From Sphagnum compactum (taxonomy: Eukaryota), in the NCBI GenBank assembly GCA_965153455.1, contig OZ234493.1:18156213-18220212 (forward strand): 64,000 nucleotides of DNA, written 5' to 3'. A program made the position numbers and the translations under genes. Positions 5,837-63,251 of the stretch are shown here, piece after piece; the stretch's first letter is position 1; every line of letters starts with the position of its first letter. The notes beneath the pieces were generated by a model. The model was not told where the DNA came from, did no database searches, and worked only from the letters and a program-made list of their open reading frames with translations.

Positions 5837-6200
5837 AGCAGCTAGTGTAGAAGTGAGAAGTGGTATGGGAGAGATGAGATGGTGAAGGAGGGATATCGAT
5901 GATGCCGTGGAAGCAGAGTGTGGGAATCGATGGACTGATGAGGATGCGTGTTGTTGTTGTTGTTGCTGGAACTTGTAGATAGAAGAGTATTTGGTGAGGT
6001 TTGAGACCACGGCCAATGAGGTAGGGTTAAGAGAGAGTGGCTGTTTTGATTTTGTCGAGGGGAGAAAATAATGGGAGAAGAAGAAGAATAGTAGGTCGTC
6101 AAGGGGCAGTTTTGGTTGTGGAGGAGGAGGAGAAAAGATTAATGTGGCAACAAGGGAGGAGGAGGAGCGCTGATGTGCGGACAAGAGTGGAGGGTGGGTA

Positions 6201-27785: not shown

Positions 27786-29419
27786 CTATTGTTCTTGGCC
27801 TTGTATATGTTTGAAATGTTATCACATATTTTTGTTTACATATTATAGTTTTGTAACAATTGTTGACATTTTTTAGCTTACAAAAAGTTGAAAAAACATT
27901 TAAAGATTTCAATATTAAAATCTGAAAGTGAAGTTAAAGGACCAACTTAATAATATAACCAACTAATCTTAAGAATCAATTATAAAAGCACCAGTTGAGC
28001 ATCAAGGAAAATAAAAATAAAGGACCAAAACAACGAATGAATGTTTTTTCAAAAAATGTGAGAACTATATCTTGGTTCTTGAATTAAAAGATTTTAAGAA
28101 CCAAAACAAGCGGTGAAAATGTGAATAACCACCCAACATTGAAATTTCCTATATAGATAAAGGTCGGTGCCTGCCAGCGGGAATTAAGTCCTCTCATACA
28201 AAGAAATGGTTTGGGTGTAATATATTCAGGCACTTGTTCCAGAATGTTCAGGCTGTCGACAGCCAGCCATCTGCATGTTGAATAATCTAAGATTTGATTT
28301 TTCAGAATGTTAACAATTGAGGAATAAGTATGCAAAGTACACCTTGTGTTGCAGATCTGTATTCGTAACCCAATGGGAGTTTGATTCTCTTTGACAATCT
28401 CAACAAATATGAATACTGTTTTTTGGTTTTTTCGTCTAGACTTTTGATGAATTGTATTTTGTGCTAACATCAATTGTCGACACGATATCAGAGGAAGATG
28501 ATATTTTGCCCATTGCCACCACTCTCAGCATTTCAGTGTGTCACTCCTCTTTTTGCACATCCTTCCTCTCAAGGCTTCCAAGGCTCCATTTGGTAGCAGC
28601 AGGCTTTTGCTACAGTCTGTGAAGTAAGGCCCACTTTTAGACTAGGAGCCAGGGCTGGAAAGACTTGGGACCAACTTTGAGCACTTTTGGCTTGTTGTTT
28701 GGCCCCACATTACTAATAAATGCTGGAACATTGTCCCTAAGGGTTGCAAATTGGCTTCCCAAATTCCATGATGGTATCCTTTTTTCAGCCTTCTGGCCTT
28801 GTAGACAAGGCCATAAAGATCAGCATTTATTAGTAGCTTGGGACAGATTGAATTTTTTTTTTTCTCTTTCAGCCTGGATTCCTAGTGTGAAGTCCTTGGG
28901 GCCAATTTCAACTTTTGCAACAATAGGAATGCTTGATTTGGGCTGAACATCGACCCTGACCTCCTAGTGTAAAGAGGGCCTAAGTATCTGTGGCTGGTCT
29001 TTGGATTCTGGCAGCCTCTGGCAAGTCAGCAAAGTACACAACATTTTGTTTGCAGCTCAAGAAAACCCAATTCAACTTGTTGGCCTTGGAAATCATCTCA
29101 GGTGTGATAATCCGCTCTCAGTTACCTTTCATGTACTAGCATATGAGTTTCAGGTACGTATATATTCAAAGAGCAGGATTTGAACTCAGTTATGTAGTGA
29201 AGTGGGATTGCAATTTTTTTTCAGATGATCGTTTTAAAGGACTGCAGTTGATTGTTTTTCCAAAAAATTGGGTTGAGCTTGTTGGAAACACGAACTTGAG
29301 CATTACATCCAACTTTAATGCCAATTGTTCTTGGTGATTTGCAGGCAATTTGGTTTGAGGCTGTATATCAATGGCTTCTTCAACTCAATTGAATGAGATG
29401 ACATTCGATACGATTCCAG
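27560..29419 (+). repeat. Segmental duplication B, copy 1 (hAT tail plus upstream region and 5' end of the 4-TM gene)
   Basis: Homologous blocks at ~53095-54595, ~54597-56245 and, partially, ~41130-41717. Confidence 0.88.
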
Positions 29420-30226: not shown

Positions 30227-31204
30227 TCCTCTTTCAAGAAAGACACGGAGCCCCATATAAAGTTGCCAGAGAGTTCACATCACTCACCAAGCTTCCCATA
30301 CTTTGGATTTTCGAATCCGGTTTCATTGATGGGTTTCCCTGGGACCCGGGAGAGTGGCACTGGCAAGCCTCCTCACAAATGGGCGACTCTCCTTTTTTCG
30401 GCTATTCCGTAAAGTGGGGCTACTGAAATGCAAGGAAACCCACCCATAGCGTCAACATCTGCTCCTTCATTCAAAAGTTAAACCTGCAAAACTCCACCGT
30501 TACGCAAGTTATTGCCAGAATCTGGCATAACGCCCGACCCCGGAAGGTCGGCACTCTCATATGGCTCACTTTAAACCGGGTCTCCCGGTTGGCACATGGC
30601 TACAATGCATGGGGATCCTCCCCACGTGCAAGGTTTGCACTGAGGAGGCCCCTGAATCCCCTCAACACTGTCTCCTCGAGTGTCCTCGCGCCAAACGGGC
30701 TTGGGAGGCCTTCTATCACATATGGCAAAAATGGGGAGCGCCAAATGACATCATTCTTTCCTGGCCTTTCGTCATGCTTGGTGAAGCTGTCTTCGAGAGA
30801 GAAGATGACCCCCCTGGAGTCCAAGGGTACCATGTAGGAGGCTTTTCCTACATCAGACAACCGCTTGACATCCTTCATAGTTTTATCCTCTACTTTCTTT
30901 GGACAGAGAGATGCTGGAAGCATTTTGATAACCAGTATTCCTCTAGGAAAATCCTTCAACAAGCCTGGGTTGCTACCGTTGAGGTTGGAATGGCCACTTG
31001 GAAGGCCATTAATTCCCTTCGGTCCACCCGGGACCCTAGTATTCAAGATAGGATTGAGCAAGCCTTTAGGGCGGAATGGTGCCACTTAGGCATCTTTGGG
31101 GTTGATTGCGTCACCATCGTGTGGTGCTTCTTGGCCCCCTTGTATTTCTTGGATTTCTTTAATGTTTGATGGGGCTGCTGCCTCCCTCCCCTTCTGGGGG
31201 TTTC
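30227..31204 (+). mobile_element. 5'-truncated LINE (L1-type) retrotransposon, 3' end of ORF2 with zf-RVT/CCHC zinc finger
   Basis: IWHNARPRKVGTLIWL...GLPVGTWL...CKVC-x8-HCLLEC; in-frame TGA at 30424-30426 and a 1-nt deletion near 30580; flanked by a 19-bp TSD TTCTATGGATTGAACAGGG (30208-30226 and 31205-31223). Confidence 0.9.
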
Positions 31205-39990: not shown

Positions 39991-41330
39991 CCAAATCTCA
40001 TAGGCTAGGCACAAGCCTATTCCACAAATCTTTTTACACTAATTTCATAACCCCTATCTATATACAAACAATGTTTAAAATAACACTTTAGTGTAAGGAA
40101 AATGTTTCACACCTACAGGCTTTTACTCATAATAAAGCATGAGGCAAAAGTTATTGTGAACATAAACATACATAGATCAGGAGAGGTAGGAGGGGAAAGG
40201 TTCTTACACCTACTCCCTAAGAATGGGACGGGTCTTCCACCTACATGTAAGGGTGAGACTAATCCCACTCCTAAGATGCATGCTATCCCTCCTCTTGCTT
40301 ACAAGGCCTATTCAGGTCTCTTCCACATAGGCTCAGAAATTTTTCTCCCAATGCTTTAGCTCTTCATGATCATCAGAAGAAGCACCAATTATTAGTTCAT
40401 GCATTATTGTAGTGTAGAATACCAACCCTACATAACATTGCATAGCATTTTATGGAAGAGTGCTTGCCAATACTGGTTGGCCTGATGGATTGGAACCATT
40501 TTCATGAGCTTTTTATAAAAAATTAATAATAATAATAATCGATATGCTTTGCTTTTCAGAAGAATATTTCATTTGCACGCAGACCATGATGTAAGGATAA
40601 AATTTCTTCAACAAAAGTGGGTGGGGCCAAACTACATTGGCAATTACATAGCCAATTTTTAAAATATTTTGTGGGGGGTGGGGTGGTTGGGTAGGAAGAC
40701 TGTCTTTACTCCATGGGGGTTGGTGATTTTTTCCTAGGTTTGGTTTGCATAGTCTAAAAAACACCAAAAGCATTATATTGTTGAATTTATGTAAACATTA
40801 CATGCGGGGAATCAACAAAGGATGTAAATAAAAGCCAACCTTCATAGGCCCCGACTCCTTCTAGGCTACAAGTCCTTGTGAAACCGTTCCTAATCCCTGG
40901 GAAAAGCTTAACACAGCTTCTTATGATATAGTATTACTAAGATGTTTTCAAGCCTTTTCTATTCGCATTTGCCAACACATGTGGAGGACTTAAAAACTCT
41001 TTTATTGAATAGAAATCATCTTAGATATCAATATATAATATGTTTCAAATTCATTTATCTTACAATTTTATTGTAGTTCAGGCACTTTCTCAGACTGGAG
41101 GTTAGCACTTTCTAATAACTTTGTACAAAACCCTGACCTGCTAGTGTCAAGTGCGCCCAAGTATCTATGGCTGGTCTAGGATTCTGGCAGCCTCTGGCAA
41201 ATCAGCAAGTAAACAATATTCTTGTTTGCAGCTCAAGAAACCCCAATTCAGCTTGTTGGCCTTGGAAATCATCTCAGATGTGATGATCCGCTCTCAGTTA
41301 CCTTTCATGTACTAGCATATGAGTTTCAGG

Positions 41331-41452
41331 AACTCGCGCCCAAAGCTGCGCCACGACCGCCGCGCCCTCCTACTCATCGAGGCCTCTCGCTCGCCCCGAT
41401 GCCCGGGTGTAGGTCGCGCGCTTCAGCGCCATCCATTTTCGGGGCTAGTCGA

Positions 41453-41486
<34 letters not shown>

Positions 41487-41491
41487 ATTTC
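41331..41491 (-). rRNA. 25S/26S (LSU) rRNA fragment of ~160 bp; inserted and non-functional
   Basis: Reverse complement reads GAAATCCGCTAAGGAGTGTGTAACAACTCACCTGCCGAATCGACTAGCCCCGAAAATGGATGGCGCTGAAGCG...GATGAGTAGGAGGGCGCGGCGG, conserved eukaryotic LSU sequence; absent from the paralogous sites. Confidence 0.93.
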
Positions 41492-41668
41492 AAAGAGCAG
41501 GATTTGAACTCAGTTACGTAGTGCAGTGGGATTGTAATTTTTTTCCAGATGATGGTTTCAAGGACTTTCGCAGTTGATTGTTTTTTTTAAAATTCGGTTG
41601 AGCTTGTTGGAAATACAGAGTTGAGCATTATATCCAACTTTAATGCCAATTGTTCTTGCTAAATATCA

Positions 41669-43167
41669 ATGGCTTCTTCAACTGAATTGTATGAGATAAC
41701 AGTGGATATCATTCCAGATAACTCAAATACATCCTCACCAGTGAGCATCCCACAGGAAACACGCATGAATGGACTCCCATCACCAGGGAATAGCTTTCCT
41801 CCAAGATCAAATCAATCAACAGAAACTGGTAGGCTGCAATTCATCTACAATAAATGTGTTTGCAATTTCCTGTTTCTGTAAAAGCATAGAATCATGCTCC
41901 AACCTGCCTCACCTCAACCGCTGTTGAAATTATAGCTTTGGGGAATTCTTCCAGCCTCTCTTTTACTCTTCTTGTTTAGAAATCAAGTGGCAGGGCAGAA
42001 TCCTCTTGCCAAATCTATCCGATGAGCACTTTTGATGGCACTCTGCATTGGGTCATGTTCTCTTAGCACCAAGACTAAATGAGTAACATTCTATTTCTCT
42101 ATTCTAATATGTTGCGATTTTCCTTAATTCGTGGCACGGATGGATACCACCAGGGAGAAAGAAACACTTGACTAGTTCTGGATTTCAGTGCCGAGCATTT
42201 GAAATAGGGTGTTTTCTGAGAAATTAGACACGCACTTGCTTTCCAGCAATTTGTACATGACCATTTGGAATATGGTAATACAATATCATGCTGTCTTCAA
42301 TCTTGCCTGTGCAAATGCTTTATGATATGTGAGTCAGGTAAGAGTCAAATATTGGTATACTAGACATGTAATTTGGCCCTGGGGAGTAGGTACAGATTTG
42401 GTAACTTCTCAGAGATTGGAGGGCTGTGTCTTCTGTTTGTGTGGTGTACAGAAAATAATACAGATGCAAACTGGTACAAAAAGAGATCAACACTTTCAGA
42501 AATAGAGGAAGAACAGAGGGAAGACATGGAAACAGACCCAGTTTGGCAAACATTCAAGAGATTCTCCACGATATTTCGGGGCCCATACTACCAGCTGAGA
42601 GGATGGCCGTGCTACTTTGAAAACAAAGAAGCAGCTGGTCGTGGATTACAAGAAGGATTTCTCAACCTCTGGAGCACTTTCATTATTGCGGTGAGTGCAT
42701 CCTCAAAAATCAGAAGAGTTGCTGCAGTTGCATGTCATGATTCGTCTTTAGCAGAAAATATTGACTGGAAGAAAGGCGAAAGTGTAGAATTGTAAAGTGG
42801 CATTAAATCTGTTGACAAGCAAGTGAAACCCAATATCTCACTCCGAAAACTCTGTTGTTTTGTGCAGGAGACGCTTCTAGCTGGAATCGCAATCCAACCA
42901 TTTGTAAGCAATGCCCCAAATATGTCTGGTTGGCAATTAGAAGTATATGGAGGACTGTGGGCATTAGCTCTGCTGTTAGACTTCCTTGGGTTGGCAAGCA
43001 CTGCCCTTTTTCTAGCCGAATTGCTTAGCAACCCAAGCCATCTTGCTTGGGTCTGGGTGTGCAAAATTGGGCCATTGATTGGCATCCCTGCAATTCTGGT
43101 ACTGTTAGCCACAATATGGAGCCTTATTACCATAAGCTTCAGTTCGTGGGTGATTTATGGGCCTTGA
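41669..43167 (+). CDS. Unannotated small membrane protein, copy 1 (3 exons, 232 aa; premature TGA removes the 4th TM helix; possibly a young pseudogene)
   Basis: Exons 41669-41828, 42452-42690 and 42868-43167 with GTAGGC..TACAG and GTGAGT..TGCAG introns in consistent phase; paralog at 56197-57132 has CGA where this copy has TGA. Confidence 0.75.
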
Positions 43168-44899
43168 GTTGGAATAATTTGTACAGTTGTTGCAGTTCTT
43201 GTTGTTGTTGCTGGTGTGGCCATCGCTAATTCCTTTGCAAAGGCCTCAGGCAAAAGGGAGGTCTTGTTGAGGCATTACCATAGAAATTTTGAAATTTGAA
43301 TTGTTTACTTTCTCACCTATACAACCACATTGGAAGAATGAAGTATATTCATGGGCATGACTGAAATTATCACCAAAAGTTCAGGGTGTCCCGATGAGTG
43401 ACCAAACCTTGTATGACTAGTGCCTGGTGTGTGGTTACCGAATGGTAAGTGAGGCTACATGCAACAAATAAGTGTCCTTGTACGTCAAGTGATTTCACTG
43501 GATTCTAACTGAATTCACTGGTTATAGTGAATGGGACTAGTGAAAAAGTAGTAAATTCAGTTTAGTGAATAGAGACTAGTGAATTGCATGCACATTTTGT
43601 ACTAGTGCTGGTAACTACTCCGCATGAACAATTTTTAAGAAAATCAATAAATGGCTGTGTTCGTCTATGAATTGCTGGTAGGAAAATTTAAGGTCCTGGA
43701 GTGCAAATTTTGAAAAGGGATGTCACTTACCCCTGTTTGAGAGGCTACAACTTGCAAGTCTTAAATCTTAATTACCACTGCAGTTAGTCAAATCTACCAA
43801 ATGTAGGCAATCTAAGCCCCATTTCGTGTATTTGAAGATAAAAACTAATTCTCAAAAAAAATTAAAAAACCTAGAATGAAACATTGGAATATAATTGAAT
43901 GTGAAAGACATGGACCCAAATAAATAAAAATTAGGGTTGAAAGAAAATTCATTACAAGATGAGAAAAACCTTTCCAAAGGTAGTCTATATGGACAACTAT
44001 ACAAAAGTACTCTGGGTATAGATCCTTTTATTTGTGATCTTCACTTATACAGTCAGTCCTATATTCAAGCTTCTTGGCCAATATGAGAGGATCAATGAAA
44101 AGCTTTGAAAAAGAGTTTGGAAATTTTCATAAGTTGCTTAACAACCTGAAGGACCAAGCAATGCTTTTTTATCCCCAATACACATTGCTAAATTTGGTGT
44201 GAAATTACAAATTAATTGCAAGAAGCTCAATTTGACAAACATGGATTTTTGGTATATGAGTGGGTACACATGCCAACTTGCAGATTTTCTCTCTAAAGTT
44301 CTTTTGACAAGTTCATCAAGTTCAAAGCCACAGAAAACATGGCTATAATTCAAACACTAATGTTCCAACATTTGCTAGCATAAAGCTCCATGTGCAACCA
44401 ATCTGGATGTCTAGCTGCCATAATTGATCAGTTTTAGAAGAGACCCAACCAAAGGACACAAAACTGAACAGTTTTTATAAAACTGAACATCGACACGTGA
44501 GAAATATTTGTGCAGGGTCATATACTGAGCACTACTGGAGATGCTCTAAGCTAGTGGATCAGTAGATTTGTTCCAAAAAGCTGACCTGAGATGGAGTGGA
44601 AGGGAGGCTGCTTTACAAATATAGGGGAAATCAATTTATTCATTCCTTGAACAAAGCGACCCAGCTTGTAGAGTTCTTACTAGAGAAGTGAGGTAGTTCC
44701 AGTTACATCTTTGGTCTGAAGTTATATTCTGTAAGATCTGTAGCTTTCTGGTCTGCAAATGTTTAGACGGGACGCCAGGACAAGAGCTATGATCCTTCTT
44801 TAGTTGTGGTGTTGTGAAAACTAGTTCAGTTTTGTGTACCGGATTAAGTCTACTTACAATCTACTAGCATATGCTCTGAGTGAATTCTCCATAGCCCAA

Positions 44900-47800
44900 C
44901 AGTGATAGAAAGTTCATCGATAGATTTTGGTCATGTGATTTATAATGATTTATACTTTTAGTTCACATCAAGTTCAAGGCTCTGAAAGAGGGGAGTTGAA
45001 GAGAAGTTGGAATTGTGTTGTGTGCTGACTTGGGTGTTCAAATGAAGTTTGGATCGCATGAACATCCAAAATTTGTCAGGATAATTGTTCTTTGATTTAC
45101 TTCTGAAGATTCATCCGTCAGGAGTAAATAAATGGGTGTACAAAATTAGAGGCAATAAGTCAAACAGGAGATTGGTAGAGGCATCTTTGATGTGATGAAT
45201 TTTCTGAGGGGATCCAAGTTGGTGGGTGTAGAGAGAAATGGGTGTTATCGGTATACAAGTCGGTCTACTTGCTTATATGGACGAGACAAGTTTTGTTTTG
45301 AGTCCTCCCACCTAGCAATCACCAATTATGTGTCTCAAAAAGTGCATATGTCCCAAAAGGAGGGGCTTTTAAACGTGTGATTGCAAAGGAAATGGCATAA
45401 TCTCTTCATTTGTCAAGTCTAGTGGGATTATTGTTTGAATGAACTCAAACATGTCGAAGAAAAGGTGATGCACTGTTGGGGCATGTGAAGCTTGAAATTT
45501 TAATAAGTACCATGAAGGTGAAAGAGAGGTCCAATCGTGGTAGAGCCAGGGTCCAGTCTTCCTATTGTTACAATAGTGACACAAATGTTGTTGAATCATG
45601 CATTGAAATCTATAAAAATTGCCATCAACTACATTGTAGTTTAAATGTTCAATTGTTGCAAGTACAATGTTTTCTAGGCCAAGCCCTAGTGTCTCATTGT
45701 ACAAATCAAGATAAGCTTTTTATGAAACACATGGTTAGATGACCTTGAGAAAACCTTGATTCATGCAAAATTAATGTTGAACAAGTGCATTGGACAACAT
45801 CAAAATATTATTATATTTGGTAGAGGCATCAATTAGCCAAGGAAGTTTTGAATGTGATCAAAGGGATAAATGAATCCATTCATCAAGCTTCTCCTTTGGT
45901 TGGGTTGCATGTTGGCTTCCCAGTATTGCAAGAATTTTGAACAATAAATGACATGTTGATGGAGGAGTCACGAAATGCTAGTGACATTATTTCAATTCTT
46001 CAATTTCATCAAATGAAATAACATATGCAATTCAAGTTGCCTTTCATGACATGTCAAGTAACAAAGTCACATTTTGTGAACAAGGTCTTGTGAAAGAGGT
46101 TGACCCACAAACTTCATTCATTTAAGTACCATATGTTGATGTTATGCACACCTAAAAGATTGTGATGTAAACATTTACAAACAGAAATAATATTATAACA
46201 AATAAGGGATGTGCAATGTGTATTTTAATTTTTTTTAAGCAAAATATTTTATTGTAACCCTTGCACAATAGCCACAAAAAACCATTACTAATGACCCAAA
46301 AAAACAACGAACACAAAAAAAGGAAATGTAAAATAAACACATAGAAAAAATAAACATCATTATAAAAAATAGAATAAACAATAAGAAATGACAAAAACCA
46401 AAGGAACTTGGAAATACAACACACTAAATTAATACATTATTAAAATAACACATTAAAAAAAGATATGGATAAAAAAGGAACAAAACAACAATAAATTTTT
46501 TTTAACATAAATTTAAATTTAAAAAAAACCCATAGCTTTTTGCATTGCGATGGCTTAAAATTTTCATTGGACCATATTCTATTGGTATTGAATTTTGACA
46601 ATGCCTTACCCAGTCTTATTAGCAATTCATTTACCTTTTATGGTTGGGATATCATTTGCAAACTTCTTGTTTAGTTTCCTAAAAGTGTTCCTACCTACAT
46701 GTGTTTTCATGAACCAAGTATGTTTTGTAACCTTAAAGTCTTTGACCTTGGGCATCAAAACAAATGGATGAGGTAAAGACGCATCATCAAATGAGGCTGA
46801 TGAAAAATCATAAGTTTATACATTTCAATTATGTTTGTAATGTTTTAGTTAATTGTTGGCTGATGGTGTTCCACATCACAATGATCAACATCAAACTTCC
46901 AACTTTTTTACTAGCCTTGTTAGTACCTACAAAAAAGAACATAAAACAAAACAAATCTAAACATCTTACAAGGAAAAAATAAAATCAACATTCAAAATAA
47001 AAGATCTTTATTTGAATATAGAACACATTACTTCAAAAATGGACCAAATTCATCCTCATGTAGGGATAAGTCCATATTGTTGACCCTCTTTGATTCTTGG
47101 GCTCCATGGATAACAAAATTCCATGTATAGTAATAGCCAAATTGAAGGTTGACACCTCAAGGTGAGGTTAATTGACATTTTTTTTGACTTAACATAAACT
47201 TCTCTTCCAAAAAAGAAAAAAATCTAATTGTGTGATACCTCTCCCAAGGCCAAAAACCATAGATTTGTTAATGGCTTCATTTACAACCAATTTCATTCTT
47301 TCAAAGGCATCATTAATGCATATATGTTGTATTTTAAACTTGACTTACTAATTTCTACATCTTGTGCAACCTCTCTTGATCATATCACTTTACCAAGTGC
47401 CTAAAATAGACTAGTTATATTGTAAAGAACCACAAAAATAACACCATCAAAAAAATTTAAAACTTTATTCAAATAAAAAAACCAACAAATGAAATAAATA
47501 TAGGAGTAGGAAGAAAACTTAGTAGGGGGATAAAACTCCCCATTTTTTTCATTACTTGCAACAAAAACTTTGAAAGGTAATTAACAAGTAGTTTAGGTTC
47601 AGAAGTGTGTAATTCCATAATCAACAGTGAGTTATCCAACTTCTTATAGTTTATGCCATGCATCGAATGTGTTAACTACCCAAATTTTGAAATGAATATT
47701 GTGTTGATGTCCACTGACCATCACATTCTTCAACTCTTGAGGATTGAGATCCTTGAAACAATGGTTAATATTTTCATCATGGTCACCATTGATATCAAGA

Positions 47801-50800
47801 TTCAATTCCTCATCACCATCCTTTCCATAAGTACAAGGAGCAACGTAACTTCGTTAACAAGCAAGTTGAATAGAACTTTCTATATTTCATAAATGCCTTT
47901 AGAAAGAATTTCTTCTCCACAAGCACTATTCAGGTCTTCTACATCTTCATCAACAACAACTTTATTTGCATTGGAAACAAACAAACAAGTTACAAAATCC
48001 ATTAAACCCAACTACAATAGAAACTAATCAAAATCATAGGATCATTGCTTACAAAACATGAAAAACACAAGCCAAGGGTAAAGAAACAGAAATAAATAAT
48101 TAGTTTGAAAAGAAAAATGTAAATGGACAAAGGATAGAACGAGAATAGTTTTAATTCTAGGACTAGAAAACTTTCAAAGAAAATTAAACAAAAATCACAC
48201 AAGTTGGCAATTGGTTGGTTGATTCCAAAGACTGTGATCTTGTTACTACAACATGAACTAATGATGTAATAATATGTTTCTTAATTTATTTTGAGATGTA
48301 CAGAAGTGATTTGAAAACACCATCGCCAACAACCGCATGAAAAAAAGTGAAAATCCACCAACCATGTGAATATCCAAAATTGTGTTGAAAAGAAACCAAT
48401 CAATAGGGGGTTGATGAAAATGCAAAGTGATAAACAATAAAAAAAATATTAACAAAGGAAGAAAAAGCAAAGAAAAAAATACAATGTATATGAAAAAAAT
48501 ATGCAACAACAATAATAGAATAGGAGAGTGGCAATGAGATCAACATATCTCCATGATGCATTCAACACAATAAAAAAATCCACAAAGTTTGTAAGAGACA
48601 ATGACTTTGCCATGACAAAAACAATGGCATAGTTTATGAGAAAACCACTTTCAATACCAAAAACAAATTCACATAGCTTTGCAAAATATAACCCCTTCCA
48701 TGCCACAAAAATAAATTGTAGCCTCCATTCGGAGAACGCCTTCAACATGGCACAAAAAAATAATGCAAAGCTTCACAAAATTGGATGCCTTTGACAAGGC
48801 CAAGAAAAACAAAACTCAATTGAGAGCTATAGCCAACAATGCGGTGCAAAAAAAAAGAAGAGCTTGATCAAACATTGGTTCATATAGGTATCATAACGCA
48901 TATTTGATGTCCAACATGATTTGCATTTCAACCATTGATGGAGGAGAAACCTAAATCATGACTGTCCATAGCAATGGTCGTTGGGTCACTTGTTGATTGG
49001 TTGCTTTAGAATTACCTTGATTCACATCTCGACCATAGATTATATGTCAATGTCATTTCCACCATACCCTTTTCTTGTTAGTGAGATCTAATAATCAACA
49101 TTGTCAAAATTAGGTCCCACAAATTGACCATTGGATGTTAAACTGAGAAAATCTTAACCATTTAATCCAGTTAATATACAACTAAATAGTTATTTGCTAT
49201 TAATTCATCCCATTTTGGATGATAAATGACATCTTCATCCAACCAATTTTCATCTATGAAAAATGGCCTTCGACATTTTTAAATTTCAATCATTGATGCT
49301 CATGGATTTCAACCATCCATTATAGGTCATTATATGTTTTAAAGTTAATGATATTTGCATTGTAGGATCTTGGTTGGGGAAATCCCAAAGGTACATCATT
49401 GATTGGTAGGATCTAGATTGTATGTTAAAGTCAATGCATTATCCATCATCGATTGTTTATCATTGGTCACACATTTGTGACCATTGGATTAAAGAGCTAA
49501 ATAATCGTAACCGTTAAATCTAGGATATAAGATATAGGCCTATCTCTAGGGTAGGGTAGAATTGAATTCGCTATAAAGTGATATATTTATTAAGTCGGGA
49601 TGAAAACATATTTGTTCCATCTAACAACTTTTCATCTAGTTTCAATTGCATTCATTCACTTTTATTTGTAATTGTTGATTTGGATTGATTTGAGCCATTC
49701 AATTTAAATTTTCTTTAAGTCGTATCATGGCTTGATCATTGTTGTTCATCTTAAAATACAATGACAACATTGTGCCCATTTGTTTTATCATAAATTTTGT
49801 TTTTTGAAATTTTCATTCCTTTTTGTTAGTTGCTTGTGGGAACATTGTTGAATCATTTGCATAGAATGTGCCTTTTCATTCCTCTTTATTTGTTACTTTC
49901 AAATCCAGTGTTGGATTGTTTGCACAAAAATGTGTGTTATGTTTATGGAAGTTAGTAGTTGTTTTCTATTGCAAATCTCTACACTCAAAGAAGCAATGTG
50001 CTAGAACATTTGGATTGAAAGGACATTAATAAAGTACACTCCAAGAACTTTGAGCTTGTAAGCAAGTTTAGGTTTGAAGCTTTGAAATCTTGGTGAGTAG
50101 AAAACCATGAAGTAATTTCAACAATGTATTGCCCATTATAATTTCTTTCGATATGTTTTGTGAAATGTTTTACATTGCATTGTTGTTGTAGTTATTCAAA
50201 TGTTTAACTATATTTTTTATTTGGCTATGCAAGTATAGGAAGACACTAACAAGATAAGTTAATATACTTATGAAGATTTTGCTTGGAGTGTTGAATCGGG
50301 AATATGCTAACATGGTACTAATGGTGCTCACTGGTCATTAAAGATTTGTTATGTTATATGTTGGTAATGAAAATCTAGTTGCATGTTTCATTTGTGTACA
50401 ATTCTTGTTAATGATATCATTTGTTGATTCATTGGTTGTATAATCATTTGAAATGGCATTGAAAATCATACATATATGGTCATGATTTAATCATGTGTTT
50501 ATTTTATGTTACTAAAATTTGTCCAATGTTACATTGTAGATTAAACCACCTTTACAAATGCTTAGCTATTATGATAATGTGTTGAAATTTGTGAAAAATG
50601 GTAACATGACACTAAAAATGATTATTGGTGGTGCAATTGATTTATTCATGGAAGGAAAATTGACAAGGGAAGAAGAATGCATTGCTATGATCTTCCCTTT
50701 GTGACAAACTATTGTTGTGATAATTATGATCAAGGTTTCATCAAGGATGAGAGTGTCTTGGAATCTTGTATTGTTTGAACCAATAAAGAAAACTACAAAA

Positions 50801-52100
50801 GTTTCTTGTTTTTCCCACATAATTTTAATGACTACCATGTGACTTATTCATGTACATTGTGAAGAGAACATCAATTTGTTCAATATGTGAAACATGAAGA
50901 CATAATTCAAGTTTATGCACATGTTAACCATGAAAATTTAATATTAAACTTGAAACCGGGGGCATGAGTGTGGTATATAAAACAATAGAGGACATCCATG
51001 TGAGTGTCACTATGGGCATGGAAATCCAAAGCAACTATGGGCGTATCATCCAAGGAACTAAAAACAAGTGAATTGGTGTTGGTGGACAATCCACACATTT
51101 TCGACAATCTTACCACTTTGGACATAAAATATTTCATGACCACAACCCCCCAAATAAGTACCACAACAGAACCAAAAATGTCTTATGACATTTTTTATGT
51201 TTTAAGTTTTTGTTATTTAAAAAGGCTTTTGCAAATGTCCCTTCTAGTTGGTGCATGCTCATGGTCACATGTTATGCACATGGCATTAAAAAGACATTTT
51301 TGATGTATGGAGAGGCATTGTTGGCTGGGATATCATGTTCAAGGTATAGTTATAGGCACAAGATCCTTGTTAAGGTTGTTGGAAAATTTTAACTCAATAT
51401 CCCTTGGTGGAAATTTGTTCCATGTTTTTGTGAAACAATGAAACAAAAATATTTGTTAAAAGGTAAGTTCATGTAGTTTCAACTTTACTACATAAAATGC
51501 CAAATGAAATTGATTGATTTATGCAACAATTCATTTAGCATGCCAACTAAATGAAATGTATTATATATTTGAATGAAATAAAAAATGAATTCATTTTCTA
51601 AAAATTATAGATAATGTGATTTCAACTAATGTTCATTGATTTCAGGTTGTTACTTATGATGAGGTCTAAAAGTCGAACTTGACATGTCTAGATGCGGCAA
51701 GACCCTTTAAATTATATGATCCACCAGGGGTCAATGAATTTCTAAAAGACCTAGACTTGACCTTAAAACCAACTTGGGGGATTTAGGAATTTTATACAAG
51801 GTCCAAGTCATAGGTTTATATAGAATGCAGGGTTGTAATTTAAGATATAGTTTAGGTTTCCTAAGTTTTTAGGTTGATATTGCAATTTGATTGCGAGTTA
51901 ATAATGTGTTCCTTTGGATGGTTTTTTCCCTTAACAAAAAAACCTAGTAATGTGGTATTTAGAGGACTATTAACAACATAAAGCTCTTTAATAGTGAATC
52001 ATTTTCTTTCCTCTCCCCTCATATATTAATAATTGACTACTTTGGATCATATGGATGGTTGTGGGAAATGATCATTAAATTTTGTTTTAATGTGTTTCAT
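44900..52100. mobile_element. Large, highly decayed transposon-derived region (family not assignable)
   Basis: Stop-riddled coding-like tracts at ~45200-46130, 47640-48800 and 50540-51460; partly duplicated at 60060-62610; no diagnostic motif recognised. Confidence 0.35.
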
Positions 52101-53094
52101 TTTAAAGTCAAGAAGATCCTCAAGAGAGCAAAATTGTATAATTCAACTTTGGTTGCCATAATTCATCCCTTTTATTCCAAATTGTGACCTAGGCCTCTAG
52201 TTTCAAGTCAAGGTTTAGTCACAACCAACAAGGTTTATCTTGGACAAGTTACCACCCACTGAACCACAAACATTCAATTGTTCAAAATATGTTTGCACTT
52301 AACAAGTAGATTTTTACTAAGGATTTGATGTTAACCTTGTGTCATGCAACCAACCTTCAAGTTGACCCCAAAATCATATCCACGTTTAAGCATAAACAAG
52401 GTCCATGTTGAACCTAGAACCACAAGTTTTTATAAAGGTTGGACCGAAAGTAAAAACATTTTTTTTATTAAATGAAAAAAATGTCAGTAAATATAAAATG
52501 TTTTCTTTGCTGGTTGTGAGGTAAGCATTATAATCCAATTAAATTTATAATAGGATCATGAACTTATTCGCAAAATCAAGATATATGGTATGCATGCATA
52601 GGGTATGCATTAATCCAAAGTATTAAAAAAATGAAAAAAAATCTACAAAGGACTTAGGTATTAATTCTTAATAGGTTCAATCAATTTTGTTATAAGTTTG
52701 AAACTTTAGAAAAGACCTTAATGATTCTTAAATTTTTTAATATGATTTCAAATTTGATGGAAATGCATCAAAGTAGTGTCATGAAGGGGGCTATGGAAGT
52801 TTGTTGAATGATCTATTAAATCATTTTTTAAATCATTTTTAATCATCAAGTTAGGTCATCTTTATGATTTTTAAAATCTTCAATGGTCATTTGCATGGTA
52901 TAAATGAATATGGGGACAAATTATGAATCCTACTAACATCATTCCCCATGGCTTCAATTTTTTCAATTGCAACATAATTATTTTACCAAAATTCAATATA
53001 AATAATTTAATTTAATTTAAAGTGGATTAAATACATGCAAAGGAGCTTGTTAGTTGATAATTATTATTATTTCATATATATCAAATTGTGAATC

Positions 53095-56000
53095 TTTTTC
53101 CCCTTACGAAAATTCTTACCAATTTGAGGAAATGTCATTTACAACCAAAGAACCTTGAAAATTTTATTTTTGTGAATAAAATTTGACCAAATGATGCAAG
53201 GGTGGGTTGCAAAGCCCTTAACAATTTGGTACAATTGATAATTTTGAATTAGACTTAGAGCATGAATTGGATGAATTTGGAGACTGATTTGAGGAAGATG
53301 AATTGAAAGATGACTAATCTATTGTTCTTGGCCCTGTATATGTTTGAAATGTTATCACATATTTTTGTTTAGATATCAGAGTTTTATAACAATTGTTGAC
53401 ATTTTTGGCTTATAAACATTTGAATTTAAAAAATAAAATTTAATATTAAAATCTGAAAGTGAAGTTAAATGAGTCTGCTAGTGGGAAAATAAGTCCTCCC
53501 ATACAAAGAAGTGGTTTGGGTGTGATATATTCAGGCACTTGTTCCAGACTTTTTTCTATGTGGGTCAGCCAGTAGTAATCTGCAGGTTCCAATTTTGGTG
53601 CTGTCAGGTTCACTTCTCATCTCTATTGAGGACTGAAAACAGGCTTGAGACGTGAGTTGTTACCTTGTAGAAAACCCATCATATCTGGAACAGGTCCCTG
53701 ACACTCCCCCCACTTGGTAGAACCCCACTTTTACTCCACAGAATTTTTCAGTGTCAAGTGTCCCCAAATTTGTCCCGTGTGAGATACCATATCCGCAACT
53801 GATGTTTGGCACTTGTATGGCAAATATTTATTTATTCTAAACTATCCACATGAATAATGTTGGATTTGATTTTTCAGAATCTCAACAATTGAGGAATAAA
53901 TATGCAAAATACACGTTGTGTTGCGGACTTGTATTCGTAACCCAATCATAGTAACCCAACGGGAGTTTGATTCTCTTGGAAACTTCAACAAATATCAATA
54001 ACTTTTTTCCCTTTTTTCATCTAGACTTTTGGTGAATTGCATTTTGTGCTAACATCAATTGTCGGTAAGGTATGAAAGGAGGAAGATGATATTTTGCCCA
54101 TTGCCACCACTCTTAGCATTTTAGTGTCTCACTCCTCTTTTTGCACATCCATCCCTCTCAAGACTTCCAAGGCTCCATTTGGTGGCAGCAGCCTTGGGGC
54201 CAATACAAGGCCATAAAGTTCAGCATTTATTAGTAGCTTGGAGCAGATTGAATTTACTTTTTTCTATTTCAGCCTGGATTCCTAGTGTAAAGTGCTTCAG
54301 GCCAATTTCAAACCAATAGGAATGCTTGATTTGGGTTGAACATCGGTCCTGACCTTCTAGTGTAAAGTGGGCCTAAGTAACTGTGGCTGGGCTTGGATTC
54401 TGGCAGCCTCTGGCAAATCAGAAAGTACACAACATTCTTGTTTGCAGCTCAAGAAACGCCAATTCAGCTTGTTGGCCTTGGAAATCATCTCAGGTGTGAT
54501 AATCCGTGCTCAGTTACCTTTCATGTATGAGTTTCAGGTACTTCTATATTCAAAGAGCAGGATTTGAACTCAGTTACATAGTGCAGTGGGATTACTAAAA
54601 TTCTTACCAATTTGAGAAAATGTCGCTTACAATCAAAGAACCTTGAAAAATATTTTTTTGTGAATAAGAGTTGGTCGAATGATGCAAAGGTGAGTTGCAA
54701 GGCCCCTAATAATTTGTTACAATTGTATATTTTGAATTAGACTTAGAGCATGAATCAGATGAATTTTGAGACTCATTTGAGCAAGATGAATTGAAAAAAG
54801 ATTAATCTATCGTTCTTGGCCTTGTATATGTTTGAAATGTTATCACTTATTTTTCTTTAGATATTAGAGTTTTGTGACAATTTTTGGCGTATAACAATTT
54901 GAAAATATATTTAAAGATTTTAATATTAAAATCTGGAAGGGAAGTTAAAGGACCGGCTTAATAATATAATCGACTAATCTTAAGAATCAATTGTGAAAGA
55001 ACCAGTTGAGCATCAGGGGAAAATAAAAATAAAGGACCAAAACAAGGAATGAATTTTTCTTCAAAAAATGTGAGAACTATCTTGGTTCTTGAATTAAAAG
55101 ATTTTAAGAACCAAAAAAAGGGGTTAAAATGTGAATAGAACCCCACTTTTACTTCCACAGAATTTTTCAGTGTCAAGTAGTGTCCCCAAATTTGTACCAT
55201 GTGAGATACCATATCTGCAACTGATGTTTGGCTCTTGTATGGCGAATATTTATTTATTTTAAAATATCAACATGAATAAATGTTGGATTTGATTTTTCAG
55301 AATCTCAACAATTGAGGAATAAGCATGCAAAATACACGTTGTGTTGCGGACTTGTATTCGTAACCCAATAATAGTAACCCAATGGGAGTTTGATTCTCTT
55401 GGACAATTTCAACAAATATCAATAACTTTTTTCCCTTTTCTCATCTAGACTTTTGGTGAATTGTATTTTGTGATAACATCAGTTGTCAGTAAGGTATCAA
55501 AGGAGGAAGATGATATTTTGCCCATTGCCACCACTCTCAGCATTTCAGTGTCTCACACCTCTTTTTGCACATCCATCCCTCTCAAGACTTCTAAGGCTCC
55601 ATTTGGTAGCAGCAGCCTTGGGGCAAAATACAAGGCCATAAAGTTCAGCATTTATTAGTAGCTTGGGGCAGATTGAATTTTATTTTTTTCTATTTCAACC
55701 TGGACTCCTAGTGTAAAGTCCTTCAGGCCAATTTCAACTTTTGAACCAATAGGAATGCTTGATTTGGGTTGAACATCGGCCATGACCTCCAAGTGTGACT
55801 TGGGCCTAAGTATCTGTGGCTGGTCTTGGATTCTGGCAGCCTCAGGCAAATCAGAAAGTACACAACATTCTTGTTTGCAGCTCAAGAAAACCCAATTCAG
55901 CCAACAGCCTTGGAAATCATCTCAGGTGTGATAATCCGATCTCAGTTACCTTTCATGTACTAGCATATGAGTTTCAGGTACGTATTTATTCAAAGAGCAG

Positions 56001-56245
56001 GATTTGAACTCAGTTACGTAGTGCAGAGGGATTGTAATTTTTTTTCAGATGATGGTTTTAAAGGACTTTTGCAGTTGATTGTTTTTAAAAAAATTGGGTT
56101 GAGCTTGTTGGAAATAAGGACTTGAGCAGTACATCCAACTTTAATGCCAATTGTTCTTGGTGATTTGCAGGCAATTTCGTTTGAGGCTGAATATCAACGG
56201 CTTCTTCAACTCAATTGAATAAGATAACATTGGATATCATTCCAG
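53095..56245 (+). repeat. Segmental duplication B, two tandem copies (~53095-54595 and ~54597-56245)
   Basis: Each begins with the hAT tail AAAATTCTTACCAATTTGAG and runs to GAGTTTCAGGTA..CAAAGAGCAGGATTTGAACTCAG. Confidence 0.88.
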
Positions 56246-57132
56246 CTAACTCAAATATACCCTCACCAGTGAGCACTGCACAGGAAACAGGCATGAATGG
56301 ACTCCCATCATCAGCGAATACAGATGCAAACAGGTACAAAAAGAGATCAACACTTTCAACAATGGAGAATGAACAGTTGGAAGCCATGGAGAGTGACCGA
56401 GTTTTGCAAATATTCAAGGGACTCTCCAGGGTATTTGAGGAGCCACTCAACCAGCTGAAAGAATGGCCATTCTTCTTTGAAAACAAAGAAGCAGCTGGTC
56501 AGGCAATACAAAAAGGATTTCTGACCCTCTGGAGCACTTTAATTATTGCAGTGAGTTCATCCTCAAAAATCAGAAGAGTTGCTGCAATTGCATGTCATGA
56601 TTCGTCTTTCTCAGAAAATATTGACTGGAAGAAAGGCGGAAGTGTAGAATTGTAAAGTGCCATTAAATCTGTTGACAAGCAAGTGAAACCCAATATTGCA
56701 CTCCAAAAATTCTGTTGTTTTGTGCAGGAGACGCTTCTAGCTGGACTTGCAATCCAACCATTTCTAAGCAATGCCTCAAATATGTCTGGTTGGCGATTAG
56801 AAGTAAATGGAGGACTGTGGACATTCACTCTGATGTTAGACCTCCTTGGGTTGTTAATCACTGCCCTTTTTCTAGGGTATTTGCTTGGCAACCCAAGCCA
56901 TCTTGCTTGGGTCTGGGTGTGCAAAATTGGGCCATTGATTGGCATCCCTGTAATTCTGATACCGTTCGACTTAGTATGGACCGGTATTGCCATAAGCTTC
57001 AGTTTAAGGGAGATTTATGGGCATCGAGTTGGAATAATTTGTGCAGTTCTTGCAGTTTTTACTGTTGCTGCTGGTGTGGCGATCACTGAATCCTTTGGAA
57101 AGGTCTTAAAAGAAATTCAGGCCTTACCATAG
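56197..57132 (+). CDS. Unannotated four-TM membrane protein, copy 2 (2 exons; 252 aa from ACG 56197 or 220 aa from ATG 56293)
   Basis: Exons 56197-56550 and 56728-57132 with a 177-nt GTGAGT..TTTTGTGCAG intron; open frame to TAG; four hydrophobic helices; 5'-UTR intron ends at 56170. Confidence 0.78.
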
Positions 57133-58311: not shown

Positions 58312-59226
58312 TGTACAACACGAACGGGTTTGGGACCGAAATTATGTATAATTACTACATAGCTATGAAGTCTATGTTCTTGGTTGCAAAATCATTCTAT
58401 CACCCTTCTATTGCCTATGCAAGCCTCACCTTTCTCCTACCATGATCTAAACACAAACAACACCAAAACCGTTCAAAACCAAAAGGCTTCCAAAACAAAA
58501 ATTTCAATTCTCACAACTTTGCATTCATACAATAACTTTGTACAAGTGATGGTGCCTTTCAAGGTCACAAACACCCCCTTATATACTAACCAAAAGCAAA
58601 TAAGTCAAAAAATTTCCTAAAGTTTATCCACCACAAGGTTCCACAAATAATCAAAAGGAAACAAAATCACATGGTTCCCCATGTGATTTCACAATTAATC
58701 AGAAGGAAACAATATCACAAGGTGCACATGTGATTCCATAATTAATCAAAGGAAACAAAATCACATGGTTCCCCATGTGATTTCACAATTAATCAGAAAG
58801 AAACAATATCACAAGGTGCACATGTGATTCCATAATTAATCACAAGGAAACAAAATCACATGGTTCCCCATGTGATTCCACAATTAATCAGAAGGAAACA
58901 ATATCACAAGGTGCACATGTGATTCCACAATTAATCACAAGGAAACAATATCACAAGGTGTACATGTGATTCCATAATTAATCACAAGGAAACAATATCA
59001 CATGGTTCCCCATATGATTCCACAATTAATCACAAGGGAACATAATCACATGGTTCCCCATGTGATTCCACAATTAATCAAAAGGAAACACAATCACATG
59101 GTGCACATGACTTGCACATTAATATGTGAAAGTCAATGCACCATGACTAAATTATGGAATCCCACCCCTAAACTTACCCCTTTAAACAATTACCTAAGTA
59201 ATTATCAAGTTACACATCAAGTTACA
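58312..59226. mobile_element. Solo LTR (915 bp)
   Basis: TGTA...TACA termini; CAAC target duplication (58308-58311 and 59227-59230); empty site in the paralogous segment at ~44395. Confidence 0.85.
58655..59110. repeat. 47/48-bp tandem repeat (~9.5 units) with internal palindromes, inside the solo LTR
   Basis: Unit A AAGGAAACAAAATCACATGGTTCCCCATGTGATTTCACAATTAATCAG; unit B AAGGAAACAATATCACAAGGTGCACATGTGATTCCATAATTAATCAC. Confidence 0.92.
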
Positions 59227-61418: not shown

Positions 61419-63251
61419 GTAACCCTTGCACAACAACCACATCTATGAAAAATGGCCTTCAACACTTTTAAATTTCAACCATTGATGCTAATGGATTTCA
61501 CCATCCATTCTAGGTCATTATATGTTTTAAAGTTAGTGATATTTGCATTATAGGATCTTGGTTGGGGGAACCCTAGGGGTACATCATTGATCAATAGGAT
61601 TTAGGTTGTATGTTAAAATCAAATGCATTATCCACCATTAATTGTTTATGGTTAGTGACACATTTGCAACCATTGGATTAAAAAATTAGTAATCGTAATT
61701 GTTAAATCTAGGGTACAAGATATAGGCCTATCTCTAGGGTAAGGTTGGATTGGCTATAAAGTGATATATTCATTGGGTCGGGGATGAAAACATATTTTTT
61801 TCATTCAATGACTTTTCATCTAGTTTCAATTGCATCCATTCACTTTTATTTGTAATCATTGATTTTGATTGATTTGCCCCATTCAATTTAAAGTTTCTTT
61901 AAGTTGTAACATGGTTTGATTGTCATTGTTCATCTTAGAATGCAATGACAACATTGTGTCTGTCCATTTTTCATAAATTTTGTTTTTAGCATTCTCATTC
62001 CTTTTTGTTAGTTGCTTGTGGGAACATTGTTGAATCATCTACACAGAATGTGCCTTATAGAATGTGCCTTTTCATTCCTCTTTATTTGTTACTTGCAAAT
62101 CTATTGTTGGATCATGTACACAAAATGTGCATTGTGTTTACGAAAATTAGTAGTTGTTTTCTAGTACAAATCTCTACACTTGAAAAAGCAGTGTGCTAGA
62201 ACATTTGAATTAAAAGGATATTAATCAACCAAACTCCAAGAATTTTGAGCTTGAAGTAAGTTTAGGTTTGAAACTTTGAGTTGAAAACTTTGAGTTGATT
62301 CTATTTTGGTGAGTAGAAAACCATGAAGTAATTACAACAATGTAATGCCCATTATAATTTCTTTCAATATGTTTTGTGAAATGTTTTACATTGCATTGTT
62401 GTTGTAATTTTGCAAGTGTTTTGCTATACGTTTTATTCGACTATGCAGGTATAGGAGGACATTGACAACACAAGTTAATATATTTATGAAGATTTTGCTT
62501 GGAATGTTGAATTAAGAATACACTAACATGGTATTAATGGTGTTCACTAGTTGTTAAAATGTTCTTATGTTACATGTTGGTAGTGAGAATCTAGTTGCAA
62601 TGTTTCATTTAATGGTTTACAAGCAAGTCTCTAAGCATTGAAATTTGATTTAGAAATTTGTGAATCCATTTTGACATTTGTAGTGTTTCACATTGATGCA
62701 GGCTTTTTGTAATCTACAATTCAATTGCAGAACACAATGTAAGAGTTTATAATCAACAAACAAAGACATGCAACTTTCCTATAATCAATCAATTATACAT
62801 AAGAGGAAGTTTACTATGATCCTTGTCAAACAATTTCTTATTTTAAGGTTGTTTTCAATTTTGAATTTGAATATCTACTATTTTGTTTTGTTTTGTCTTA
62901 ATGTATCATGAATAAGTTTTGTAAAGTAAATTTTTAGTAGTTTTTGTACATCAGGTAGTGCCCTTGTCCTCAAGCGTTACCAACACAAAATACACCTTTT
63001 GTATTTGTACTAGGAACCCAATGGTTGGGATAATAAATGAATTTTCAAAAGTTTTGGCAAATATCAATAAATTTTCTTCTTTATTTGGCTATACCTTTTT
63101 TTGATTTGTTTGGTGCCCCAACATCAAGTAGTAGGATACCCTGAGCTGCATAGTTGAAGACTAGGTACACACATAGTGGCCTTTGATGCCCTTCCAAAAC
63201 ATTGAACCAAAAACGGCCACCTTACCATGAACGGCCAATCTGTGAGGTGGC

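Follow-up and report, generated by a model that had tools for sequence, protein, structure and literature searches.

Introduction

Plant gene families under diversifying selection, such as those of the NLR surfaces, the S-locus and the pollen-coat peptides, are arranged in tandem copies with frequent pseudogenes and are characterized by a ratio of nonsynonymous to synonymous divergence (omega) greater than 1 in patches lying beside a conserved scaffold. The same patchwork is found in the subject of this paper, two tandem gene copies in a stretch of 64,000 nucleotides from the moss Sphagnum compactum (contig OZ234493.1, positions 18,156,213 to 18,220,212 of the forward strand, hereafter the window), but these genes encode an unrelated polytopic membrane protein and belong to a family found in mosses only. 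Other systems to be compared are membrane proteins themselves. In Orai, helix 1 lines the pore with a ring of glutamates, and proteins of the PGG/ACD6 type carry ankyrin repeats at their N-terminus. WeiTsing, the clubroot-resistance channel of Arabidopsis (PDB 8hf2), is a small plant membrane protein as the moss proteins are, and, according to passages of its report, it is a pentamer localized to the endoplasmic reticulum which has a central Ca2+-permeable pore and acts in immunity (PMC10441888).

The window probably holds two old, damaged tandem paralogs of a moss-restricted, fast-evolving membrane-protein family under pervasive positive selection. The excess of amino-acid changes which the original prediction had reported between the two copies is confirmed for the pair and is general across the family, and a replacement rate about twice that of neutral DNA points to an ongoing evolutionary arms race.

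Divergence between the Two Copies

Both copies are contained in a same-strand duplication of about 5 to 9 kb, and each block carries one small gene. The gene models, which were checked by script for splice sites and reading frame, are given below together with the blocks; all features are on the + strand.

41131-46219, continuing at 49251-50393, +: duplicated block of copy 1, from the within-window alignment
41669-41828, +: copy 1 exon 1, with ATG at 41669 and donor CTG/GTAGGC, encoding a disordered N-terminus (MASSTELYEI...)
41829-42451, +: copy 1 intron 1, 623 nt, GT..AG, not in copy 2
42452-42690, +: copy 1 exon 2, encoding a short helical domain and the first half of membrane helix 1, the fastest-evolving part
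42691-42867, +: copy 1 intron 2, 177 nt, GTGAGT..GTGCAG, unusually conserved across the family
42868-43299, +: copy 1 exon 3, encoding membrane helices, with an in-frame stop inside
43165-43167, +: premature TGA of copy 1, directly before the last membrane helix
55780-61366, continuing at 61440-62610, +: duplicated block of copy 2, from the within-window alignment
56191-56550, +: copy 2 fused open frame of exons 1 and 2, without intron 1
56551-56727, +: copy 2 intron 2, 177 nt, GTGAGT..GTGCAG
56728-57132, +: copy 2 exon 3 including the stop codon, with 19 private replacements, the family maximum

The junction of exons 1 and 2 in copy 1 reads ...STETENNTDA, the same as in two named Sphagnum proteins (P0024 and P0021). 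Recounted by gap-free alignment, intron 2 differs between the copies at 10 of 177 positions (5.6%; 42691-42867 against 56551-56727), exon 2 at 40 of 234 (17.1%; 42457-42690 against 56317-56550) and exon 3, up to the TGA of copy 1, at 36 of 297 (12.1%; 42868-43164 against 56728-57024), and the 177 codons contain 57 replacement and 4 silent-only differences, with no silent-only codon in exon 3. These values bear out the earlier hand counts of about 10/177, 40/230, 37/300 and 58 against 4. In exon 1, 12 of 40 codons carry replacements and none is silent-only. Over all 245 alignable codons the differences fall 44, 41 and 20 on codon positions 1, 2 and 3 (chi-square p = 0.0076), and this third-position deficit is unlike a pseudogene, which would give equal thirds, and unlike a wrong frame, which would give an excess at one position. 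By the NG86 method, nonsynonymous divergence (dN) is 0.189 and synonymous divergence (dS) is 0.066, a ratio of 2.9. The blocks said to be invariant, FENKEAAG, ETLLAG and NPSHLAWVWVCKIGPLIGIP, are present in the copies, as is the helix STFIIAETLLAGIAIQPF as first described.

The exons are more diverged than intron 2 (Fisher p = 0.002), as had been claimed, and the contrast is real, although it is partly due to intron 2 itself being low. The non-coding flanks of the two copies differ by 8.5-17% per block, or 456 of 4276 positions (10.7%) when pooled; the exons (106/741) are more diverged than this pool (p = 0.0045) and intron 2 is less diverged (p = 0.03). It might be argued that much of the family, both copies included, consists of neutrally drifting pseudogenes and that the excess in the pair is a chance extreme picked by eye, since single-pair probabilities of 0.002 to 0.008 carry little weight when many windows are scanned. 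This explanation concerns the whole family and is weighed against family-wide counts in the next section.

Selection across the Family

A scan of contigs from moss metagenomes gave 28 loci (labelled L0xx); most keep an open frame, and 21 span the region from exon 2 to exon 3 with intron 2 between them. Loci that were frameshifted or nearly identical to another were removed before the counts: the pairwise table (16 sequences, 120 pairs) is without L007, L016, L018, L019, L021, L022 and L023, and the 17-sequence tree, comprising 15 genomic relatives and both window copies, is without L007, L016, L018, L021, L022 and L023. Over the 120 pairs, mean dN is 0.168 against a dS of 0.099 in exon 2 and 0.095 against 0.086 in exon 3, with a mean intron 2 distance of 0.054, and dN exceeds dS in 102 pairs (110 for exon 2 alone).

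The one-ratio codon model M0 (iqtree, 17 sequences) gives an omega of 1.94, with twice the log-likelihood difference (2dlnL) from omega = 1 amounting to 27.1 (p = 1.9e-7); fitted per exon, omega is 2.09 for exon 2 and 1.77 for exon 3. A gene-wide omega near 2 on a tree of 17 sequences is rare and usually marks genes engaged directly in conflict or recognition, for example those of immunity, mating or selfish elements. Site models were computed with in-house likelihood code which keeps the relative branch lengths fixed and reproduces the M0 likelihood of iqtree exactly, and they favour M2a over M1a (2dlnL 100.4), placing 28% of sites at an omega of 4.55, 58% at 1 and 14% near 0. Leaving out the window copies lowers omega to 1.75 (p = 3e-5) and the 2dlnL of the site test to 88.9, and per-exon trees yield 41.9 and 49.8 in the same test. 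Consequently, the family is under diversifying selection, as shown by an omega greater than 1 on a multi-sequence tree and by a positive site class, and the high ratio seen in the pair survives the inclusion of more sequences.

The posterior for positive selection exceeds 0.9 at 25 sites, 14 of them in exon 2. Six selected sites lie in the last helix (245, 249, 250, 253, 254 and 257 in P0024 numbering, assigned by hand), and their spacing of 3-4 residues places them on one helix face. Residue diversity is 0.39 in residues 21-52 of exon 2 and 0.31 in the last helix and tail, and it is lowest, at 0.07, in the second half of helix 1.

Pseudogene drift predicts an omega of 1, whereas the values obtained are 1.94 with and 1.75 without the window copies. 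It can call on the lesions of both copies and the frameshifts of L016/L018, L022 and L023, which are described below, and on the 58% of sites that fit omega 1. However, only 1 nonsense change is seen on the 17-sequence tree, where 8.4-13.2 would be expected if the exons were neutral. In addition, 23 sequences record 11 insertion or deletion (indel) events in the 177 nt of intron 2 (8 not multiples of 3) and 9 in 606 nt of exons (4 not multiples of 3), so that frameshifting indels occur about 7 times less often per base in the exons than in intron 2. Because stops and frameshifts are so strongly under-represented, these are maintained genes. Furthermore, L019, a near-ortholog of copy 1, is colinear with window positions 42030-45763 at 97.35% identity, and between the two the exons differ at 29 of 672 positions (27 replacement, 2 silent) and the non-coding DNA at 63 of 3062 (Fisher p = 0.0014), that is, the exons diverge twice as fast; one codon which is AGG in the family has become ACG in copy 1 and ATG in L019. 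Neutral drift is therefore largely refuted for the family, and the explanation as a whole is highly improbable.

A second explanation dispenses with adaptive selection by supposing a mutational artefact, that is, multi-nucleotide mutation, local error-prone repair or patchy conversion. Adjacent changes do occur, at 42558/42559 and 43109-43111 in copy 1 against L019 and as three adjacent pairs among the private changes of copy 2; the family is multi-copy, so conversion donors exist; and the exon and intron divergences of copy 1 and L019 (5.8% against 1.7%) are similar in ratio to those of the paralogs. Nevertheless, when eight phylogenetically independent pairs are counted at single-hit codons only, with 37 multi-hit codons excluded, 217 replacement and 44 silent changes are found against an expected replacement share of 0.73 (p = 7.9e-5), and a grid of mutation biases (kappa, CpG and GC) moves the expected share only from 0.718 to 0.757, with p at most 0.0024 throughout. 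Hypermutation of the exons would raise dS, but four-fold degenerate sites diverge by 0.078, no higher than the 0.110 of the DNA downstream, and the private changes of copy 2 are not significantly clustered (see below). Moreover, conversion carries silent differences along with replacements and thus cannot account for a family-wide excess of the latter. An artefact of this kind is quite unlikely.

Conservation of Intron 2

Across the family intron 2 diverges by 0.055, against 0.110 for the 1.1 kb downstream of the stop, and is the lower of the two in 76 of 78 pairs; the four-fold sites are also more diverged than it is. Its length varies from 174 to 179 nt, and it is therefore a true intron. 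A structured RNA and a coding antisense frame were both considered for intron 2 and rejected, since there is no stable RNA fold (z +0.30) and no Rfam match, and the 139-codon antisense open frame of both window copies is not kept in the relatives (59-147 aa). Splice signals can account for only part of the conservation.

These values bear on a third explanation, in which the ratio is high because its denominator is low: a function at the nucleotide level, for example that of splicing signals, of an antisense transcript or of a regulatory element in the intron, would slow the change of intron 2 and of silent sites, and the replacement sites would simply be free of constraint. The low divergence of intron 2, about half that of the downstream DNA and below that of the four-fold sites, with a tree length of 0.318 against 0.503 for dS, is what this explanation requires of the intron. 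The silent sites behave otherwise: dS (0.090) and the four-fold value are close to the downstream divergence, so they are not strongly depressed, and the dN of exon 2 (0.168) exceeds the downstream divergence too. The intron itself shows neither fold nor Rfam match, has taken up 8 indels not divisible by 3 and lacks an antisense frame kept in the family, and this explanation is accordingly very unlikely. The contrast between exons and intron arises because exon replacements are accelerated and intron 2 is modestly constrained, and it is a clear example of an intron that has changed less than the exons on either side of it.

Lesions and Turnover of the Copies

Neither copy is intact, a point missing from the original prediction. 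Copy 1 is interrupted by the TGA at 43165-43167, where copy 2 and the close relatives of copy 1, L017 and L019, have CGA. In copy 2, ACG stands at 56197-56199 in place of the start ATG, the next in-frame ATG being at 56293, and 15 codons and the whole of intron 1 have been deleted in frame. The presence of intron 1 is the usual state, because every metagenome locus matching both exon 1 and exon 2 (L003, L008, L009, L013, L014, L016, L018, L020 and L024) keeps a gap between them. Copy 2 also alters near-invariant residues (SSWV to SLRE, Y to N and Q to R). Its exon 3 has 19 replacement and 2 silent private changes, against 3 in the 177 nt of the intron, which exceeds the neutral rate; 10 of these 21 changes lie within 80 nt, a clustering that is not significant (p = 0.11) and does not support one clustered event behind them. 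On distance-fitted branches copy 2 has a dN of 0.091, a dS of 0.019 and an intron value of 0.029, and copy 1 has a dN of 0.031 and a dS of 0.009.

Frameshifts in L016/L018, L022 and L023 represent 3 further damaged lineages among the 23 aligned family sequences. In the tree, copy 1 groups with L017/L019 and copy 2 lies on the opposite side of a split with 100% bootstrap, the tree giving it no firm place among the other 14 sequences. The intron distance of the two copies (5.6%) equals the family mean (5.4%, 120 pairs), and this together with the split shows that the pair is old and not recently homogenised; a conversion tract between copy 1 and copy 2 is therefore ruled out as the source of their similar introns. 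A remnant of a third copy is also present.

28953-29419, +: third-copy remnant, upstream region and first ~18 codons of exon 1 only

Two old paralogs, a 5' remnant, lesions in both copies and three other damaged lineages fit the birth-and-death mode that had been proposed for the family. As a separate observation, L011 (positions 118-384, exon 2) contains an in-frame internal duplication of 33 nt, in which TIEKEQLEDME occurs twice, and this is another sign that the exon 2 domain tolerates length change.

Distribution of the Family

A HMMER pass over 1.84 billion representative proteins with copy 2 exon 3 as the query gave 22 matches at E <= 0.001, and word-indexed protein searches gave 50 and 66. 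The named members, of 258-277 aa, come from Sphagnum troendelagicum, S. magellanicum, S. fallax and S. jensenii, and a distant member with 45% identity, M758_1G326900, occurs in the true moss Ceratodon purpureus; in the searches run the family was found solely in mosses (Sphagnum and Ceratodon). Their source names are "hypothetical", "unnamed" or "Transmembrane protein" only, apart from one NADH-dehydrogenase label. This label, NADH:ubiquinone oxidoreductase subunit K, is the JGI name of P0001 and finds no backing in Pfam, P0001 matching 0 Pfam families at E up to 10, NuoK/ND4L included; ND4L chains give only generic three-helix fold matches to the structural model (Z 7.8, 89 aligned). No Pfam family was matched by the window exons, by 8 full-length relatives or by any of 38 aligned members, which gave only scattered weak hits at E up to 10. 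Among these hits DUF6594 is the commonest (4 of 38, best E 0.41), no other Pfam family being hit by more than two sequences of the alignment (A3), and it is far from significant. A sequence profile search of the PDB returned only PsbJ (E 0.23). No longer fused relatives were found, which is weak evidence, and all 22 HMMER matches are at most 466 aa long. A literature search for six locus tags of the family found 0 papers, and a general one gave nothing relevant among its 15 top-ranked entries, supplements being outside the scope of both.

P0023 is a contiguous open reading frame of 267 aa, the longest contig being 1210 nt, and it is the splice of genomic locus L002 (exon 2, 77/78; exon 3, 134/134; junction A133/E134). 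At least one family member thus has a spliced form, and P0023 is presumably derived from mRNA.

Predicted Structure and Self-Association

An AlphaFold2 model of P0024 was made from a 38-sequence alignment. Residues 1-64 have a predicted local distance difference test score (pLDDT) below 50 and are disordered; short helices follow at 70-80, 83-103 and 105-111, and four long helices at 116-147, 155-187, 190-230 and 232-264, with a block pLDDT of 72-84 over residues 151-260. The disordered N-terminus and the four helices of the original prediction are thus both in the model; the number of membrane spans is four or, since the helix 190-230 is 41 residues long, possibly five. A hand count of Lys and Arg favours four spans with both ends cytosolic, which would place both hypervariable parts on the cytosolic side.

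Searches for similar folds gave only weak likenesses. VIA-align against 48,161 chains found generic helical hairpins only (best Z 8.2). The best full-length fold match is Orai (VIA-align Z 7.9, root-mean-square deviation (rmsd) 4.3, 131/138 residues, model residues 118-267, 19% identity), which aligns all four helices in the same order and is also the top row of Foldseek. However, the match is non-significant (Foldseek E 2.3, probability 0.33), with Z below the helical-bundle noise level of the tool, and none of the 38 members is hit by Pfam Orai-1 (PF07856) at E up to 10, so that of the Orai-like bundle once suggested only a non-significant fold likeness stands. An Atlas feature search placed a cluster with 11% Orai-1 members at rank 20 (score 0.85) and gave no other usable lead. 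Orai is conserved, unlike the moss family with its omega greater than 1, and its N-terminal domain is unrelated to the N-terminus of the family. The family has a conserved Glu (E134) in helix 1, which is central in the predicted four-copy assembly described below.

WeiTsing aligns at 111/120 residues with a VIA-align Z of 7.7, an rmsd of 2.8 and 8% identity, a match that is non-significant in Foldseek (E 5.0), and no sequence relationship to the family was detected. It serves as a working analogy of a small self-assembling helical bundle tied to host-microbe conflict. The likeness to PGG/ACD6 is a loose one of helix 1 only, a hydrophobic helix ending in a Pro-containing motif. Where PGG/ACD6 proteins have their N-terminal ankyrin repeats, the moss proteins are disordered, and the searches give no grounds for kinship, no PGG or ankyrin Pfam match being found in the window exons, the 8 relatives or the 38 members (E up to 10). 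The PGG/ACD6-type likeness thus finds no support, the PGG model matching 0 of 38 members and none of the window exons, and the accompanying remark that ankyrin repeats are missing holds good, with no ankyrin match and no longer fused forms found.

A prediction of four copies of residues 100-267 gave a score of 0.41, against 0.01 for the best of 3 controls. This mark is reached by 21 of 30 one-chain pair structures and 0 of 23 single chains (17 of 29 and 0 of 30 for eukaryotes), in a calibration set made of two copies, not four. The four-copy runs agree in at least 91% of contacts with a partner pLDDT of at least 67; in the model the copies all make contact through helix 1, and each helix 4 lies against helix 2 of the adjacent copy. 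The four-copy prediction supports self-association; a pore or conductance does not follow from it.

Other Features of the Window

The window contains four instances (41131-41330, 28953-29154, 54348-54527 and 55780-55978), 88-92% identical, of the block of about 200 nt that precedes the gene, which may be a small repeat or else a promoter that travelled with each duplication. Copy 2 is immediately preceded by a tandem duplication of about 1.43 kb (53104-54620 against 54592-56060, 87-95% identity), within which the stretches ~54076-54216 and 55449-55658 correspond to the 5' exon of P0021 (MEDDDILPIATT...) in a related Sphagnum annotation. Just upstream of the start of copy 1, at 41375-41622 (- strand), lies a fragment like eukaryotic large subunit (LSU) rRNA (Rfam RF02543, E 4.9e-7, scoring 41.6 bits where the gathering threshold is 50), and its part at 41331-41488 is unmatched in the DNA preceding copy 2.

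A tandem array with a period of about 47-48 nt (58585-59102, 7 overlapping copies of 139 nt) sits in an insertion in the downstream flank of copy 2 (58312-59226) which the relatives L011/L012 do not have, and it is open in one frame, giving a repeated QLI.RKQ.H.VPHVI-like peptide. Adjoining the third-copy remnant, the open frame at 30531-31169 (+) has a weak zf-RVT match (E 3.4e-4, below the cut-off) and is probably a retroelement remnant; this was all that Pfam gave for 21 long open frames in other parts of the window. At 6174-7484 (+), where the GC content of the window is highest (0.485), lies its longest open frame, of 436 codons, for which Pfam returned nothing at E up to 0.01.

What the Family May Do

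Several points weigh against the reading of the window as two damaged members of a positively selected membrane-protein family and against its functional extension. Both window copies are lesioned and may be dead or dying members, and the residue changes of copy 2 together with its lost ATG look like loss of constraint. Constraint is weak overall, as the 58% of sites at omega 1 indicate. The metagenome sequences mix species, orthologs and paralogs, on contigs some of which may be mosaics. The M1a/M2a test is prone to inflation where paralogs recombine, the relative branch lengths in the site-model code were fixed, and adjacent multi-base changes such as 43109-43111 occur. As to the protein, the AlphaFold2 model is of middling quality (mean pLDDT 63.5, predicted template modelling score 0.46), Foldseek against the PDB found nothing at E <= 0.001 and no fold match is significant, the proposal that the selected membrane sites form the subunit interface was rejected (6/11 selected exon 3 sites against 62/124 in the predicted interface, hand count), and the functional reading is by analogy.

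With these points in mind, the family can be described as follows. Its members keep their reading frame under selection while their amino-acid sequence outpaces neutral DNA, and the fast-evolving codons, about a quarter of all, are concentrated in the N-terminal helices, the last helix and the C-terminal tail, while the core of helices 1-3 is conserved. The predicted protein, of about 260-277 residues, begins with a disordered stretch, continues with a small cytosolic domain of short helices and ends in a membrane bundle of four long ones; it would self-assemble in the membrane with helix 1 towards the centre, and its variable, probably cytosolic surfaces may contact a fast-changing partner, for example, the product of a microbe or a selfish element. 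Both window copies are damaged members of the family in its turnover, copy 2 with a burst of replacements in exon 3. By analogy, the protein may be a recognition or channel component, a mechanism to which the weak fold likeness and the predicted self-association lend some support. The more specific proposal that the family forms moss-specific self-assembling membrane pores engaged in an arms race, in which the N-terminal helices and helix 4 with the C-tail recognise and the Glu of helix 1 makes the pore, is a speculative and rather unlikely one, and to our knowledge no such system has been described in bryophytes.

For the window alone the meaning is more modest, since both copies are damaged family members. 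Genes of conflict and recognition are poorly known in bryophytes, and Sphagnum lives with a dense microbiome. The family has no known domain, no sequence relatives outside the mosses in the searches run, a conserved membrane core and two hypervariable, probably cytosolic surfaces, and these make it a clonable candidate for a recognition or channel system. If the pore proposal were true, the family would serve bryophyte immunity as an executor or sensor of a kind unrelated to NLRs, working much as WeiTsing does, or, alternatively, a selfish element of the poison/antidote type acting in haploid spores, for which the wtf genes of fission yeast offer a comparison.

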